From contig NC_043017.1 of assembly GCF_006345805.1 (NCBI RefSeq), positions 25,048,001 through 25,112,000 on the forward strand: a DNA stretch of 64,000 nt, in the 5' to 3' direction. The position numbers were made by a program, and so were the translations under genes. This DNA comes from Octopus sinensis (Eukaryota). The notes under the pieces were generated by a model. The model was not told the origin of the DNA. It was given only the letters and a program-made list of their open reading frames with translations, and searched no databases. Shown here piece by piece: positions 8,963 through 50,067 of this stretch; position 1 is the first letter of the stretch, and the number at the start of each line of letters is the position of its first letter.

Positions 8963-8997
<35 letters not shown>

Positions 8998-9026
8998 CGA
9001 GAAAGAAGCAACAAGAATGGATAGGT

Positions 9027-9117
9027 TTTTAGTACAATCGTTTCATACAAGGACAGGCTTTATTAAAAGTTGCAAAAATTACAGCATATAAACGTGTCCC
9101 GTACTCATCAGCTAAAA
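9027..9117 (-). ncRNA. Mirror copy of the hammerhead at 9306-9396
   Basis: Exact reverse complement in the left arm of the foldback. Confidence 0.75.
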
Positions 9118-9305
9118 TACATGTGAGTTCTCTAGACATCCTAGTGGTTGAGGCTATACTCATGAAGTAATGTAGATAATTAAGTAACATAAACAGATTT
9201 CCAGAACTTTAATGAACTTTGGAAATCTGTTTATGTTACTTAATTATCTACATTACTTCATGAGTATAGCCTCAACCACTAGGATGTCTAGAGAACTCAC
9301 ATGTA

Positions 9306-9396
9306 TTTTAGCTGATGAGTACGGGACACGTTTATATGCTGTAATTTTTGCAACTTTTAATAAAGCCTGTCCTTGTATGAAACGATTGTACTAAAA
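9306..9396 (+). ncRNA. Minimal type I hammerhead ribozyme (Penelope-type)
   Basis: Stem I UUUUAG/CUAAAA; core CUGAUGA 9312-9318; stem II GUACGGGACA/UGUCCUUGUAU; GAAAC 9379-9383; near-palindromic stem III ACGAUUGU; cleavage triplet GUA 9388-9390. Confidence 0.75.
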
Positions 9397-10550
9397 ACCT
9401 ATCCATTCTTGTTGCTTCTTTCTCGCTTATAATCACCCCACATTACTGTATTGTTAAAACAGTATAGTTTTTTTTGGTGCATCTAAGTTAGGTACCATAT
9501 TCAAGTAAATTCATTTAAATTAACTTGAATCTTTATTGCTTTTTGTATATATATATATATGTATGAACATATGTGTGTATATATGTGTAGGTCTGTATAC
9601 GTATATGTTTTAAATGTCAACCAGATATTGATGAAGATATTAATTCAGGACCATCACTTTCCTTAACAGACTATAATTACTAGTTTTCTGAATGCCATTA
9701 AACCAGAAATGTCATTGTCTACTTGAGAGAAATAAGTGACAATTCTTCATTCTATTAGGAACATTATGGAGTACAACTAATGTCTCTCCCTCTCTCTCTA
9801 ATGCCTTGTATAACCCAGATTTTTTAATTCTAAGCTGTTGAATGACAGTTCAGGGAACACAGCCAAATTGTTGAATAACACCAGAACAGCCCTGTTCAAA
9901 CAGAACTCTAATGAAAAGGTATTGTGGACATCCTGTCTTTGCTCGGACATTGTAGATTTGGGACTACATTATCCAATGTGTCCTTTCCTGTTTTAAGGTA
10001 GTAAGATATGAATTTGTGTAGGAATTGGCTGCTATTTCTGGAAGGTTGAGCAACTATTTAGAGATCCTACAGTTATCTCAAAATGGTCAATTTTATAGAG
10101 CACCAGAAGGGTTGGTAGATAGTGGTACTAACATTTTGTCTTAAAATAGTTAGGCCCTTCAAGCTTCAAGTAGGTTGTCAATGTCCTAGATATTTTACTT
10201 TCATCAGTTGATCCCATCAAACATGAAGTAGGTGCAAACGTATGCCCTTCACTTCCTATGGAGTAGAGGCCATCCACAACTTTGCTCTACTGTTCTGAAC
10301 TCAGGCTGTCTTTTCTGTTTCTCTCTGGGGAATGATGTTGTCTTGAGATTTGGTAGCAACAAGTCCCCTCAAATCCCAAAAGTCTTGCTTTGGATGTTTT
10401 GCAGAATACAGGATTACACATTTCTGCAGGTCAACCGTGCAAGTCTCAATATCCTTCAGTCCCTTATGTAGCAGTTTGGTTGTTGTTGCTCAGCCCTTGT
10501 GGCCAATAAAAAGAATTTATTATTATTATTATTATTATTATTGTTATTAT

Positions 10551-14098: not shown

Positions 14099-14192
14099 TT
14101 AAACGTGCCAAGCTGTATCAGCCTTTGCCATTCCCTTGGATGACATCAATGGTGTGGTGAGAAGAGGCTGGTATGCATGGGCGACTGCTGGT

Positions 14193-14597
14193 CTTCTATA
14201 AACAATCTTGCCTGGCCTTGTTCCCTGGAGAGGAACTTCTGGGTGCAATACCTGTTTCTTTACTACCCACAAGGGGCTAAACACAGAGGGGACAAACAAG
14301 GACAGACATAGGTATTAAGTCGATTACATTGACCCCAGTACGTAACTGGTACTTAATTTATCGACCCCGAAAGGATGAAAGGCAAAGTCGACCTCGGCGG
14401 AATTTGAACTTTCATCCTTTCGGGGTCGATAAATTAAGCACCAGTTACGCACTGGGGTCGATGTAATCGACTTAATACCTATGTCTGTCTTTGTTTGTCC
14501 CCTCTGTGTTTAGCCCCTTGTGGGTAGTAAAGAAATAGGTATTGCACCCAGAAGTTCCTCTCCAGGGAACAAGGCCAGGCAAGATTGTTTATGGAAG
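14193..14597. repeat. Foldback of a SINE 3' half plus its flank (189-bp arms 14193-14381 and 14409-14597)
   Basis: Arms reverse complementary with about 6 substitutions; 27-nt loop; partial third copy of the flank at 14605-14644. Confidence 0.9.
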
Positions 14598-14953
14598 CCC
14601 AATTTTGCCTGGCCTTGTTCCCTGGAGAGGCTGGGTGCAATACCATGGTCATTCATGACTGAAATGAGTCTTTATCCTTTAGTCCTTGGTGGCCATGTGA
14701 GAGAGAGAGAGAGCATGTTGGGGTTTGAACCTCTGTCAGTTTATTAAACGATTTTCTTTTGGATTTGGTTTAGTGGAGGTGCATCTGTTTCTTTGTTTGT
14801 CAAGCAAAAGCATTATGACTGTAGATATGAACAGTATTACAGGATGTGTCTTTAGCTATTTTTGTTGAGGGTTATTAACTCTGATCAGGGCTGAAGTGTT
14901 TCCTGCTTCTAAAGTGGAATCCTGATGTTTCCAATGTTATTTTGGCAGTGTTT

Positions 14954-16945: not shown

Positions 16946-17843
16946 TTGGGTTGAGGAATAATTAATGTGCGTGTTTTTTTTAAATTTAAAAATAGACGCA
17001 GAAATAAAACACCTTGACAGAATGTTTTATGTTTTTTGGAAGAATTTTTCGCGCTATGTGATAGTGTTTTGATTTTTTAATTTTATTGGTTTTTTTTCTA
17101 TTTTCAGATCATTAAAATGGAATGTCAAGTGGACAAAACTGAGCATTTTTGACACCATTTGCTTTTTGGATTTAACCAAGGTGTTAAACCTACCAAAGCT
17201 GCATGTGAGATTTGTGCTATGTATGGAGAAGGAGCAATTCCTGAAAGTACCACCCGCTGTTGGTTTTCATGCTTCAAAAATGGGAATTTTTACCTCGAGG
17301 ATGGCTCACACACACCGGTCAATCAAATGAGTTCGATGAACCTTGCCCATTGAGTGAAGGTGGTTCACCACAATTTTTTTTATCACAATCTGCTCTGCCA
17401 ATTCTCTGGTCATTGGCAGATTTTCTTGAAGAAGTTGATTATCGCTCTTCATTGAACTCAGTTGATTGACCGTTGTGTGATCCATCCTTGAGGTAAAAGT
17501 TCCCATTTTTGAATTGTGAAAACCAATGGTGGGCAGTACTTGGAGGCATTGCTCCTTCTCCATACACAACACAAATCTCATGAGCAGTTTCGGCAGGCTT
17601 AAAACTTTGATTAAATGCAAAAAGTAAACACTGTCAAAAATGCTCGGTTTTGTCCACTTCACATTCTATTTTAATGATCTGAAAATACACAACAATCAAT
17701 AAAATGAAAAATCAAAACATACTATCTTGTAGAGCCCAAAAATTCATTTTTAAATAACTTAAAACATTTTGCCAATGTATTTTATTTTTATGTACATTTT
17801 TAAATTTGTAAAAAAAACGCTCATGAATTATTCCTCAACCCAA
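16946..17843. mobile_element. Mariner-derived non-autonomous element built from two inverted 5' halves
   Basis: TIR ttgggttgaggaataatt / aattattcctcaacccaa with TA on both sides; decayed mariner HTH (LLFGFNQG..AACEICAMYGEGAIPESTTRCWFSCFKNGNF) on + and a homologous copy on -. Confidence 0.85.
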
Positions 17844-19911: not shown

Positions 19912-20501
19912 ATAGACATAGTTTTGGGTAAACTTCAGATTTCTCCATGTTCTCTTCTCTTCTCTTTTCTTTCTCTCTCTCTTTTTTTTTTCCAATATAT
20001 AAATTTTTTTCTTCTTCCACCAAACTCTGCCCATCTGTTTAAAACACTAACTGTTTGGGTCCTTCAGGTACAAAGAATTTCTTGTGGGATATGACCCTTA
20101 ACCAACTGAAGTTGAAGGGTAAGTCACCCTCACCCCTGTGTTGTGTTTCAATACCCTTTGTTGCCAGGTTTCTTTAGTTGGAATGTTTTTTATCATTTTG
20201 CTTTGTAAAAACTATGTTACTGTATTATTTCATTATTTCTAGCCCTTGCCCCTGTTTGTTCATCTCTTTTTGTTTTTTTTTTTCCGCTCCCCGCCAACCC
20301 TAGACTCCACTACAAATTACACTGCACATTTTTTTTTTGGCTATTTTGTGAATTTAAACATTTTTTTTTTTCCTGCTCCTTGCATGTTTGTTGTGTTTTT
20401 GTTGTCGATGTTGTTACCACATTGCTATTGCAATAGAGTTCTTATTTTTGTTCATTTCTATTTTATTTCATTCATTCATTTATTTTTGGATATTTATGAA
20501 G

Positions 20502-25287: not shown

Positions 25288-26253
25288 TTTTGTATGTATA
25301 GCAAAGGAATGACTGCTTGATTAAAAAAGCTCACTTTGCAACAATGTACTTTCAGTTTCAGTCTGGTTTCACAAGTGTCTTCTTTTTTAGTCCCAGACTG
25401 ACTAATGCCTTGTGAGTGAGTTTGGTAGATGAAAACTACGGAAGACCATCATTTGTGTGTTTGTGTAAGCTCTTCCCATTTCTTGGCAACTGGTGTTTGT
25501 TTGTTTATGTTCTATATAACTTAACATTTTGACAAAAGTGACTGATGGAATAAGTACCAGACTTTAAAAAAAAAAATAAATACCAGACGCTTAAAGAATA
25601 AGAACAGGGATTGATTTGTTTAACTAAAAACCCTTCAAGATGGTGCCCCAGTATGGCTGCTGTCCAATGACTGGAGCAAGTGAAAGATAAAATGTGTAAA
25701 GATTAGGTATGTCTTCTTTCTGTTTTCATTTGGCTCTGCATTTTGTTGCTGAGTTTTCACCTTGTTTCATTCACACCTGTCTCTGCATAACTAGAGTAGT
25801 TGATGTATGCCAAGTAAATGCCTGGCTGACGAATCCTACATAAGACATGTATTCGTAGAAGATAAGTCAAGGAATGAAAATTTAGTACAGATACAAAAAA
25901 CTAGAGGTTAATAGTCTCAAATGATTTCAGCCTGTTCAAAATTCTCTCTCTCTCAGTTGAAATTTATAGAAAAAAAAAAGACAAAGACTGGTGTATGAAT
26001 AACAAGCAAGTGTATTAGTTTGATGCTTGGGAAAAATGAAAAAGTTTTTCATGTTTTGAGCTTACGCTCTTCAACAGAAAAGAATGAGAAAATCAAGAGA
26101 GAATGAAAGAACTTTTAGATCCCAGCGGTCCATATATATATATATATAAATTCGGGGTGAGTACTTGATAATTGTAAGCACCTGTATATACCGTTTGGTG
26201 GTGTAGGTGGTGGAGTAAATTAATCAAAATAAAAACATGATGCCAAGGATTCA

Positions 26254-26331
26254 GCGGTACATATGTTTCGGGCCTTTATTAGACGGATTTATAACAATGC
26301 ATAATGTATGTCTGTGGCCTTCTTCAGCCGC
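26254..26331 (-). ncRNA. Mirror copy of the hammerhead at 26606-26683
   Basis: Reverse complement in the left arm of the foldback. Confidence 0.7.
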
Positions 26332-26605
26332 GCACAACAACTTCCACAAGGACATGTATTACATCAAAAATTCTTGGTTGGGGATGCAAATCCTCTCATT
26401 CGCGTATGACATAATGCGGCAACAGCATAAAAATGAAGCGTCCATCTCGTTCTTCTCTCAATGTTCTTCTCTACATTGAGAGAAGAACGAGATGGACGCT
26501 TCATTTTTATGCTGTTGCCGCATTATGTCGTACGCGAATGAGAGGATTTGCATCCCCAACCAAGAATTTTTGATGTAATACATGTCCTTGTGGAAGTTGT
26601 TGTGC

Positions 26606-26683
26606 GCGGCTGAAGAAGGCCACAGACATACATTATGCATTGTTATAAATCCGTCTAATAAAGGCCCGAAACATATGTACCGC
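26606..26683 (+). ncRNA. Minimal type I hammerhead ribozyme (second family)
   Basis: Stem I GCGG/CCGC; core CUGAAGA 26610-26616; stem II GGCC/GGCC closed by an A-C mismatch; GAAAC; palindromic stem III ACAUAUGU; GUA 26677-26679. Confidence 0.7.
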
Positions 26684-26718
26684 TGAATCCTTGGCATCAT
26701 GTTTTTATTTTGATTAAT

Positions 26719-26751
<33 letters not shown>

Positions 26752-27164
26752 GAGACGGGTATAAGGGATCTATTCCTTGGGCTGCTATTGGATCATAAGG
26801 TTTCTGCTGGGCTTAGTCAGCGAATGGGGAATCCCAGGCTTGCAGCAGGTAGTGCTTACAGTTGATGTGTGGTGTAAAGATTTGAGTGTGCTTTTCTCTG
26901 TTTACAGAAGCAACAAAATGTGTTATCATTTAGTAGAATGCTTTAATATATTGTATAAATAGCTTCTGTGTAATCATATGGTTTTCTTAATCTCTGCATA
27001 GCATACTCACCATTTTCTAGTAACCAGACATTCTTCAATATTTATTAGATTTGTTATTTAATTAATTTACTTTTTTTGTTCATACAGTTAGTCTTAAAGA
27101 TTGCAGTATTATGTAATGTGTAACTCATCTTGTATTATCTCAAATACTGAAGGATGCCATTTGT

Positions 27165-27690
27165 AAAAACTAGTTGATTTTGCTAATAGCTTGTTGATAT
27201 TTCTAAAGGCTGATTGATCTGGTTAAAGGCTGGTTGAGTTTGCGAAAGGCTGGTTGATCTTGCGAAAGGCTGGTTGATCTGGTTAAAGGTTAGTTGATCT
27301 TGCAAAAGGCTGATTGATCTTGTGAAAGGCTGGTTGATTTTGCAAAAGGCTGGTTGATCTTGTTAAAGGCTGGTTGATCAGGTTAAAGACTGGTTGATCT
27401 TGCGAAAGGCTGGTTGATCTGGTTAAAGGCTGGTTGATTTTGCGAAAGGCTGGTTGGTCTGGTTAAAGACTGGTTGATCTTGCGAAAGGCTGGTTGATCT
27501 TGCAAAAGGCTGGTTGATCTTGTTAAAGGCTGGTTGATCTTGCGAAAGGCTGGTTCTTGCGAAATGCTGGTTGATTCTAGCTAAAGGCTATCTGATCTTT
27601 CTAAGCAATTGTTGATGTTGCTAAAAACTGGTCGAACATGATAAAAACTAGTTAATCTTGCTTAAGACTTGTTGACCTCGTTAAAAATGT
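27165..27690. repeat. 20-bp minisatellite (aaaggctggttgatcttgcg), about 25 units
   Basis: Direct reading; homogeneous centre, degenerate edges. Confidence 0.9.
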
Positions 27691-30454: not shown

Positions 30455-30895
30455 TATAAAACATATAATACATATGTAATGTATATGTGCATATATATAT
30501 ATATATAATTTGTATATAAGTATACATATTTATATATGTAATGTACATGTAATATATATATGCATGCATACAAGTGCATACTTTACACTCTATTGATTTC
30601 CACTTAATTATATGCCAGTAAGCTATTCTTCATGCCAAGTAATACCATGTTAATAGTTTTGTAGATTACTCTTAGCCAATCATTAGATTAATGTTTTCAT
30701 AAAAATATCTTGAAATTAAATTATGATCGAGATGAAGAAAAAAAAAAAAAATTCATTTTCCTTTGCCCATTTTCTTCCCCACTTCTCCCTCCTCTCTCTC
30801 TCTCCCCTTTTATCTCTTTGTTTTATTCTCTCCTTTTCATTCTGTGTCGATTGCCATTCCATGTTGCTTACTGACTGTTAATTACACGTTTTTAG

Positions 30896-30943
30896 GTAAT
30901 AAAACTAGATCAGTTTTGTATGAGTCCTCATCACCTAAGTTTG
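30896..30943 (+). CDS. Candidate 48-nt symmetric exon (GNKTRSVLYESSSPKF), phase 1 to 1
   Basis: Branch-like ttaCTGAC at 30868-30875, tttttAG acceptor, consensus donor G|GTAAGT, frame-preserving. Confidence 0.7.
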
Positions 30944-42033: not shown

Positions 42034-43536
42034 GTTAAACATTAAGGCAAGGCAAACAGCACAAGTCATATACAATATTATTATAGGAAGAAATTATAAT
42101 AAATTATGATAATATTGTATATGATTTGAGATGTTTGCATTGCCTTAATGTTCGATGTCCTGTTTAACAATTATATATCTGCTGCATCGGAAATCCCAAA
42201 TGGCTCCATAACTACCATCTCGGCTATAACCTTGTAGCCCCAGTAATCCGTTACAACACTTACCTAGCATACCTAATCGTTTAGATCACCTATGAACTAA
42301 GCTTAGTTCATATATACATATATTCACACACACACACATAAATATTTGTGTGTGTGTGTGTGAATATATGTATATATATATATACATACATATACATACA
42401 ACATACATGCATACACACTTGTTTGATATGTGTTGCCAAGAGTTATGTGCCAGTTTTATTTCTCAGAACAAGGCAGTGTATTATATTGTTGATAAATGAT
42501 AGAATTACTTACGTCACTGACAACATTGACCAATAATAATAACTAGCAAGGGTCACTTAAGACAAGGAACAATAAATAGAAGCAGATTTAATTTTAAAAG
42601 AACAATACAGCAGTGATGTCATTGCTGTGCAAAATTATAGCAGCATTGCTTATAAACTAATCAGAGCTATTTAAGGACAGCAAGCAACTGCAGCACTACC
42701 TTTCGATTAGTACAACACAGCATGACACAGTGAACTTAGTCTCTCTTTGTCTTTGGTTATGTGTTTGAAATTTCCAAATTAAACCTAATTCTGGGTTTGG
42801 TCATATTAACAATAGTCAAATTACATAGAATTAAAAACATCCTTGTTCTACTTGCACCTTCACACAACAAATATCAAACCATTTTCTTACCTTACTTCTT
42901 ATCCTTCAATTAGCAAATATTCCTTTAATTAGCAACTGTTCTTTTAATAAGTTAATAATCTTGTAAATGCAATCTCTGAAAAGATTCAGGATTGCCATCT
43001 CTTGATCTGATTTCTTCCCTTACACACATGTATGTATACGCACACCTATTTTAACGTGTGTTGCCGAAAGCTATGTGCCAGTCTCTTTCCACAATCTTGA
43101 ATTGAGTAAATTGATTGAAAATTAGTGCCTTTGCTTTTGAACTACCCCCCAATTTCATTACAGGGGACACTACAAATCTTCTTTCTGGTAAGAAGCTGTC
43201 TAGTTTCCCATGACTTGATCTGGGTAACAAGGTGAGTGCTTCCCATTTTGTCTCCTGCTTCCTGCCATATTATACACATAGAACAACCAGGGCAGAACTT
43301 TTTTCCAAGTGACAAACTTATACATAAATTTCTGCTTTATTTCTTCACGTTGACCACTGCTATTGTTGTTGTTCTTTCCATAATAACAATAATTTTGATT
43401 ATTATTGTTGTTGTTGTTATTTTTTATGAATGTTTTCTGATTGATCTATGCACAGATAGAGCTTATATCTAGTCGCATGTACTATTTTATACCAACACCT
43501 TTATTCACATGCACACACTCACCTCCATACATACAT

Positions 43537-49723: not shown

Positions 49724-49858
49724 TTAATATTTTAGTATTGTTTATCATCTAAATGCTAAAGGGACTTACGATGCACCCTTTTAATTTTTGGGGGGTTTTT
49801 TTGCCTTCTTTTTTTTCATGTGCTTTTTAAGTCTAATTTCTTTTATTCTTATTTTCAG

Positions 49859-50067
49859 TTGACAAAGCTGACCCGATAAACACAGGATGTCACCAGCCAC
49901 GAACTTTGCCAGACGTTGTTTATACCGAAAGTGGTTCTCCTCCGATGGAAAAGCATGCCCAACATCATCCCATCTGCAGCAAATCTTGGCCAGAAGTGGA
50001 GGCCCGCAGGCTAATCCTGCACGACAATGCTGACAACAGTTGTGACACTGTAAACCAGAACATTTAA
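49859..50067 (+). CDS. Terminal coding exon (VDKADPINTGCHQPRTLPDVVYTESGSPPMEKHAQHHPICSKSWPEVEARRLILHDNADNSCDTVNQNI*)
   Basis: Branch-like CTAAT at 49833, acceptor ttattttcAG, phase-1 entry open to TAA 50065-50067, clearly GC-richer than flanks. Confidence 0.8.

Follow-up and report, generated by a model that had tools for sequence, protein, structure and literature searches.

What is a nearly perfect foldback, with a type I hammerhead ribozyme motif in each arm, doing inside an octopus gene, and by what process did it arise? The foldback takes up about 570 bases of the window (the whole stretch of 64,000 nucleotides analysed here), and its arms, 26216-26464 and 26473-26721, form the window's top inverted repeat. 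Each arm is 249 nt long, and between them lies an 8-nt loop, TCTTCTCT (26465..26472). The left arm (26216..26464, minus strand) is extended outwards by an AC-rich tail of 68 nt (26148..26215, minus strand), and the right arm (26473..26721, plus strand) has none. Both the tail and the untailed arm end after AATT. The target is a (TA)n run, of which the left part is at 26132..26148 and the right part, the outer flank of the untailed arm, at 26720..26746; no target-site duplication is resolvable in it. The arms, the loop, the one-sided extension, the (TA)n target and a single arm mismatch had all been described in the original prediction and are confirmed in the sequence. As a whole, the loop is not native family sequence; it appears to combine a re-copy of 8 nt of nearby arm sequence with a 3-nt TCT/AGA microhomology. 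Two more inverted repeats are present elsewhere in the window: a third foldback at 14189-14601 (193-nt arms, 96% complementary, 27-nt loop), which consists of a common dispersed repeat, and an inverted pair at 17045-17741, 79% complementary, with mariner Mos1-type HTH fragments.

The sole mismatch between the arms opposes T26407 to G26530. A column comparison drawing on 52 loci, 30 of them chosen for likeness to the window copy, showed that T26407, which lies within a CpG, is private to the tailed arm: 49 of the 50 loci covering this column carry the other letter. The untailed arm does not deviate from the family majority in any of its 249 columns. The window copy has thus one change in 498 arm bases, and a CpG change private to one arm, together with a second arm identical to the family majority, indicates a real and very young insertion. 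The argument that the mismatch speaks against a simple read artefact agrees with this.

The gene that houses the foldback encodes the octopus palmitoyltransferase ZDHHC9 and runs on the plus strand; tblastn with annotated isoforms matched its exons 809-960, 20068-20118, 30895-30942 and 49858-50064 at 100%. By splice pattern and Pfam, applied to 92 of 231-plus candidate frames, no exon of the host was recovered in the window. The 3' exons of the gene (the four above and 43148-43210) include two small cassette exons and an alternative last exon. The first cassette exon (20068..20118, plus strand, 51 nt, AG/GT ends) and the next one (30895..30942, plus strand) bound the intron of the element. A second hammerhead foldback, at 8992-9540, had been placed in this same intron, and the first cassette exon lies between the two elements. 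Among 15 listed ZDHHC9 proteins (of 18 members), this exon is present in ten and skipped in four, and one record gave no match to any of the exons considered here; its carriers include two other octopods. The claim of a shared intron accordingly holds for exon-skipping isoforms only and fails for the ten isoforms in which the exon intervenes. The cassette exons recur unchanged in Argonauta; an O. vulgaris record leaves out one of them. Two further exons were seen in neighbouring loci. A second copy of the DHHC exon (L119:7452-7553, plus strand, 76% identical) lies upstream of L118:2434, the two being possibly mutually exclusive exons, and about 13 kb to the right of the window there is an exon resembling the alpha-2-macroglobulin receptor-binding domain (L121:3386-3721, minus strand; weak Pfam match).

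The hammerhead motif of the untailed arm (26606..26683, plus strand) is sense to the host gene. It is built from stem I (GCGG/CCGC), CUGAAGA at 26610, A/C at position 10.1/11.1, stem II (GGCC/GGCC) with a 41-nt loop, GAAA (as GAAAC at 26668), the palindrome ACAUAUGU at 26671-26678 serving as stem III, and a GUA triplet ending at 26679, 3' of which the cut is predicted. Core, palindromic stem III and cleavage site agree with what had been proposed from the sequence. The copy in the tailed arm (26254..26331, minus strand; CUGAAGA at 26327 of that strand) is antisense to the gene, with the cut predicted 3' of 26258. An Rfam scan of the window gave 0 matches at the gathering score, and as a hammerhead monomer the 78-nt motif folds no better than chance (z 0.34).

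A structure scan of fetched loci yielded four families with the same hammerhead build. Two of these (L036:560-651 and L088:560-658) have a long loop II and a palindromic stem III beside (TA)n and are probably further Hydra families. In 16 sequences from the four families the core columns CUGANGA, GAAA and NUH are invariant. Seven of 12 stem pairs change on both sides and 93.8% of cells are paired, compared with 21-45% in slid controls, a signal that leans toward this structure since the families were chosen by the structure scan. With the same proviso for structure-picked families, the seven compensatory pairs are the opposite of the stems without covariation that would have spoken against a ribozyme. 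Within the family, variation amounts to 12 of 1,872 cells in core and stems and to 373 of 10,874 elsewhere; counted by columns, Fisher p is 0.04-0.11. The A/C at 10.1/11.1 can also be read as an extra A plus a bulged C. The palindrome ACAUAUGU is predicted to permit a dimer helix of 8 bp, in the manner known from PLE hammerheads (PMC4209133), and we predict that the element itself uses this hammerhead as a ribozyme of the dimer type.

To which element do the arms belong? In its own genome the foldback has numerous relatives. The best 40 of 2,180 candidate places, which were scored, are 95-100% identical, and a 25-mer from the ribozyme has 1,408 exact matches, compared with 0 for the reversed control. 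In most copies the sequence upstream of the queried part is a low-complexity 3' UTR of 1.5-2.1 kb, preceded by a GIY-YIG frame. Conversely, in 20 endonuclease loci, taken from 150 matches listed and chosen mainly for long open frames, the terminal repeat (pLTR) to which the arms correspond was found downstream of the frame in every case, on the same strand and at 1.5-2.1 kb. Three loci (L072, L073, L074) carry an unbroken ORF of 836 aa that starts just after the tail; in full-length copies the tail is the stretch from the pLTR to the ORF start codon. At L073 the ORF lies between two direct pLTR copies, with a period of ~4.77 kb from pLTR to pLTR and an inverted copy upstream, and direct repeats surround the ORF at both L073 and L074 (partial tandems). 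The ends of the foldback match those of the long copies, each arm being the last 249 nt of the pLTR, 5'-truncated. Genome-wide copies and a link to a full-length Penelope-like element (PLE) with reverse transcriptase (RT) and GIY-YIG endonuclease, both of which the original prediction had called for, are thus found. Judged by its sequence, the foldback is a stub of the 3' terminal repeat of a Hydra-clade PLE. Another candidate partner, a 914-aa RT and GIY-YIG frame beside one tail (L025/L040), was dropped: it is on the opposite strand, occurs in one of 20 long loci and gave no tblastn match to the family ORF. This frame (L040:5283-8024, plus strand) is unbroken, belongs to a different PLE type with two Cys between GIY and YIG, and stops 110 nt before the (TA)n containing this family's tail.

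The 836-aa ORF has the motifs FD, MG, YRDD and VIY..YIG. RWA at 39 is a K to A variant of RWK, also seen in one relative, and DKT stands at 126; a match to G.K[FY] is absent from the ORF. Further towards the C-terminus come CNCRCASEC at 696 (CxCx5C), CQLC at 793, E799, N814 and CIH at 823, and CCHH is missing, no conserved Cys lying between Y717 and Y730. PMC8557442 characterises the Hydra clade by RWK instead of GxKF/Y, DKT instead of DKG, CxCx5C, CxxC/CxH around E and N, no CCHH, and a (TA)n target. The target preference is also evident here, as nearly all listed 3' ends continue into (TA)n or (CT)n(TA)n. The period of ~4.77 kb is longer than the clade's unit of generally <3 kb, a tendency rather than a rule in PMC8557442. 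Relatives of the protein share 30-39% identity, with named matches in molluscs and a bryozoan. A Pfam search of the ORF returned no RT or GIY-YIG match and no solved structure in PDB matched it, so that the domain calls come from motifs and from by-eye reading of published Hydra sequences; two of 26 aligned relatives do have a GIY-YIG match in Pfam. From these motifs, and from shared blocks seen by eye, we assign the family to the Hydra clade.

The foldback at 8992-9540 belongs to a second Hydra family, whose other copies (L116, L117) show 4.6-kb direct repeats around an Asn-rich ORF. It also has one tailed and one untailed arm, with the tail on the right, and is very young, 29 of 40 scored places being fully identical. 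The original prediction had seen no nucleotide similarity between the two foldbacks, and this is correct: the best blastn E is 0.47 and 52 of 300 shuffles score as high. It had further called the families unrelated and independent, which is not supported, as pieces of the 8992 ORF are 40-69% identical to the 836-aa protein and carry the same Hydra motifs. Compared at the protein level, the two are distinct families of shared origin. Since the 8992 element is a second Hydra family, the common architecture is inherited, not convergent.

How do such inverted pairs form? The first 100 positions of the 25-mer motif on contig C1, taken in order, fall into 71 clusters, of which 43 have a single motif, 27 are divergent (head-to-head) pairs, one is a direct pair and none is convergent. 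With 43 of 71 clusters single, many events evidently leave no second arm long enough to hold the ribozyme. Short hairpins, with motifs spaced <=506 nt apart (405 in the window copy), make up 12 clusters. Extrapolation gives an estimate of ~1,000 insertions and ~170 short hairpins in total. Two clusters of 3' ends are seen, at q236-254 and q317-337; in both, the end is preceded by AATT and continues into (TA)n. Weak hairpins lie immediately before the end of the tail, in this family as well as in that of the 8992 element. A truncation hot spot at the fold point of the window copy was considered and abandoned, as short arms end anywhere from ~q-70 to q189. The short arms of two different insertions (L043 and L086), of which one arm is tailed and the other untailed, stop at an identical position (q63), and two apparently solo untailed copies (L139, L147) have a short inverted piece of tail at the 5' junction.

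Comparison of the two ends within each pair gave a uniform result. One end is tailed and the other untailed in all ten pairs picked through the endonuclease and in all eight position-ordered pairs. The presence of a tail played no part in choosing either set, and the second came from 30 loci. Of the 20 endonuclease loci, eight had no inverted partner in range, and L083 (interrupted) and L087 (a convergent tailed/untailed pair) were excluded from the count. Were the ends independent, 18 one-tailed pairs out of 18 would have a probability of at most 0.5^18, or ~4e-6. In 20 pairs examined for arm length, the longer arm was the tailed one in eight and the untailed one in six, four pairs had near-equal arms (in one of them ~1.9 kb) and two were complex. 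Loops of 0.4-4.2 kb are common among the pairs. The arms are 98.9% identical within eight pairs and 94.4% between pairs.

The reading we favour, with a probability of roughly 0.85, is that the foldback is a very short and young insertion of a Hydra-clade PLE, consisting of two truncated pLTR copies placed head to head, and that two-ended priming likely produced it. Both nicked ends of the (TA)n target would prime reverse transcription of the element RNA by the element's protein. Priming would take place at two RNA sites 68 nt apart, with one cDNA gaining the tail and the other not, and two short cDNAs would then be joined at their 3' ends, by a microhomology-type joining, into a head-to-head pair in a single event. 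That each pair combines one tailed with one untailed end, and that either arm can be the longer, speaks for two RNA sites, with both cut ends serving as primers. In agreement with this, cutting and extension of both strands, with starts at two internal sites bounding the tail, have been described for a lizard PLE in vitro (PMC11167929). Alternatively, a single strand of the same element may have primed on itself (snap-back) to yield the inverted arm; an antisense template, which has been suggested for rotifer Penelope, would be one way. In favour of this, the loops of the window copy, L018 and L023 are of almost zero length and sit at a local quasi-palindrome, and in PMC3846280 palindromes at inverted junctions are interpreted as self-priming; near-equal arms also fit it better than they fit two independent truncations. 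In six of 20 pairs, however, a long untailed arm stands opposite a short tailed one; neither can be a copy of the other, and folding back of a single strand cannot yield such a pair. Loops of several hundred bases to a few kilobases are common, which likewise speaks against it. We therefore regard snap-back as rather unlikely in general, the window copy itself being among those that it could explain.

The original prediction had also described the ribozymes as masked by the antisense arm. Thermodynamic prediction agrees with masking (-484.5 kcal/mol for the foldback vs -9.9 for the hammerhead under constraint): as the host gene is transcribed, the antisense arm would precede the sense arm in the pre-mRNA and would bury the hammerhead in a 249-bp duplex, precluding cutting. 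A duplex of this length would be a substrate of A-to-I editing. The data give no support to the idea that masking is an end state favoured by selection, head-to-head pairs being 27 of the family's 71 insertions taken in order of position. Since head-to-head geometry always puts the antisense arm first, the predicted masking follows from geometry and probably came about incidentally, not as a switch operated by the host.

Upon closer examination of loop II, we detected the hexamer AATAAA at its 3' side in three of the four hammerhead families. In the window copy it lies at 26657..26662 (plus strand), 17 nt before the predicted cut and followed by a U-rich tract; in the two families measured (26657-26662; 9300-9400) the distance to the cut is 17-26 nt and a U/GU-rich tract lies behind. 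Its presence is modestly beyond chance (shuffle P 0.08, 0.01 and 0.13 per family; absent in the fourth). The hexamer is possibly a poly(A) signal; alternatively, it can be read as a tertiary-contact motif. A broader reading would join these threads: two-ended priming at two AATT-marked RNA sites would be obligatory, the pLTR would choose between polyadenylation at a loop II signal and self-cleavage at nearly one spot, and stubs would silence both, being therefore tolerated in introns in either orientation and serving, while young, as dsRNA substrates of editing. Taken as a whole, we consider this combination doubtful. In the titles and abstract openings of the literature searched, subscription journals lying outside its scope, we found nothing on a poly(A) signal in PLE hammerheads, on octopus Penelope hammerheads or on twin priming in Penelope.

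Three other explanations of the foldback deserve consideration. So perfect a palindrome might be an assembly or fold-back read artefact, and contigs of four public runs over 25500-27300, while covering flanks and element, contain among the pieces listed neither a bridge across the junction nor an empty site. None of the public runs listed as containing the element is from RNA, which does not bear on its expression. An artefact, however, would hardly create an asymmetric tail, a non-native junction, a CpG transition in one arm and (TA)n at both outer ends, let alone the same asymmetry of tails in 18 of 18 other pairs, and we give it almost no credence. It is also very improbable that the hairpin is a mobile unit in its own right, i.e. 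that it represents a non-autonomous, MITE-like or retrozyme-like foldback family. Short foldbacks are indeed numerous, and retrozymes derive from PLE pLTRs (bioRxiv 10.64898/2026.07.22.740005), but the foldbacks examined differ from one another in junction and in the lengths of their arms (spacing 255-4889 nt), their ends are shared with long copies, and tandem arrays are absent, only one direct pair occurring among the 71 clusters.

The third is a device selected by the host, in which the antisense arm would silence the ribozyme, and a poly(A) signal with it, in either orientation, or the hairpin would regulate splicing or editing of ZDHHC9. The occurrence in a single gene of two foldbacks from different families, the predicted masking, the position between two cassette exons and the AATAAA in loop II of three out of four families would all suit such a role. 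Nevertheless, short foldbacks make up 12 of 71 insertions irrespective of genes. By a rough estimate, two short hairpins are rare for a given 64-kb window, but with four or more families in a genome of 2.7 Gb such a coincidence is plausible at some place. The copy, with a single arm change, is young in comparison with cassette exons that are unchanged in Argonauta and one of which an O. vulgaris record omits. Masking may not even be needed, given that a lone minimal PLE hammerhead from the same class failed to cleave in vitro (PMC4209133). Selection by the host is thus improbable, and a truncated, two-ended PLE insertion remains our preferred reading.

As an element, the foldback is ordinary retrotransposon debris, and its value lies in what it documents of the mechanism. 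The family is young, has an estimated ~1,000 insertions, and retains intact ORFs and 3' ends that fall sharply at two sites; it thereby offers a clean genomic test of how inverted ends and tails of PLEs form, which PMC8557442 names as an open task. A further look is warranted at the tails, with one tailed and one untailed end in each of 18 pairs, and at the AATAAA of loop II; a poly(A) signal within the ribozyme, should it prove genuine, would give PLE hammerheads an additional, regulatory role.

As far as the accessible parts of the cited papers go, this is a new family of a known kind, its layout, ribozyme and target having been published already (PMC8557442, PMC4209133, PMC3846280). The Hydra-clade PLEs of Craig et al. 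2021 (PMC8557442) include Hydra-1_Obim from an octopus, which, read by eye, differs from our family in ORF and ribozyme sequence. Published Hydra PLEs and this family have in common the C-terminal GIY-YIG, RW(K/A), DKT, CxCx5C, CxxC-E-N-CxH, the lack of CCHH and the (TA)n target. In their pLTR hammerheads, position 10.1/11.1 is occupied by one additional base pair or by a mismatch, which the A/C of this family resembles, many published motifs showing T/T there. In Penelope-13_HM, as here, a 5'-truncated inverted copy places a hammerhead on each strand. In contrast, the unit of our family measures ~4.8 kb, with a low-complexity 3' UTR of 1.9 kb, whereas published Hydra units are usually <3 kb; its tail is 68-85 nt instead of 30-40; and its loop II has 41 nt instead of the 3-10 nt of 26 listed Hydra motif rows (all PMC8557442). 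Endonuclease-bearing PLEs in general show a head-to-head inverted copy, a tail at one end, 5' truncation and partial tandems (here L073, L074) in the same manner (PMC8557442 Fig. 2; PMC3846280); what sets the window copy apart from them is that both arms are reduced to pLTR and that no target-site duplication is visible in the (TA)n.

The minimal dimer-type PLE hammerheads of Cervera and de la Pena 2014 (PMC4209133) resemble ours in a 4-bp helix I, an extra base after A9 and a small palindromic helix III, and differ from it in lacking the long loop II with AATAAA; for Schistosoma, the same paper reports opposite-strand hammerhead pairs 100-700 bp apart. Poseidon of Anolis (PAc; Frangieh et al. 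2024, PMC11167929) shares the AT-rich target, two adjacent RT starts bounding an AC-rich tail, and cutting and extension of both strands. It belongs to another clade and its ribozyme overlaps the ORF start, while here the ribozyme lies ~200 nt before it; in the available portion of that paper the two RT starts are not applied to inverted pairs. Non-LTR retrozymes (bioRxiv 10.64898/2026.07.22.740005), finally, are similarly PLE-derived and non-coding and carry a type I hammerhead; they are direct tandem repeats, whereas the octopus copy is a single inverted stub, from a family with one direct pair in 71 clusters.
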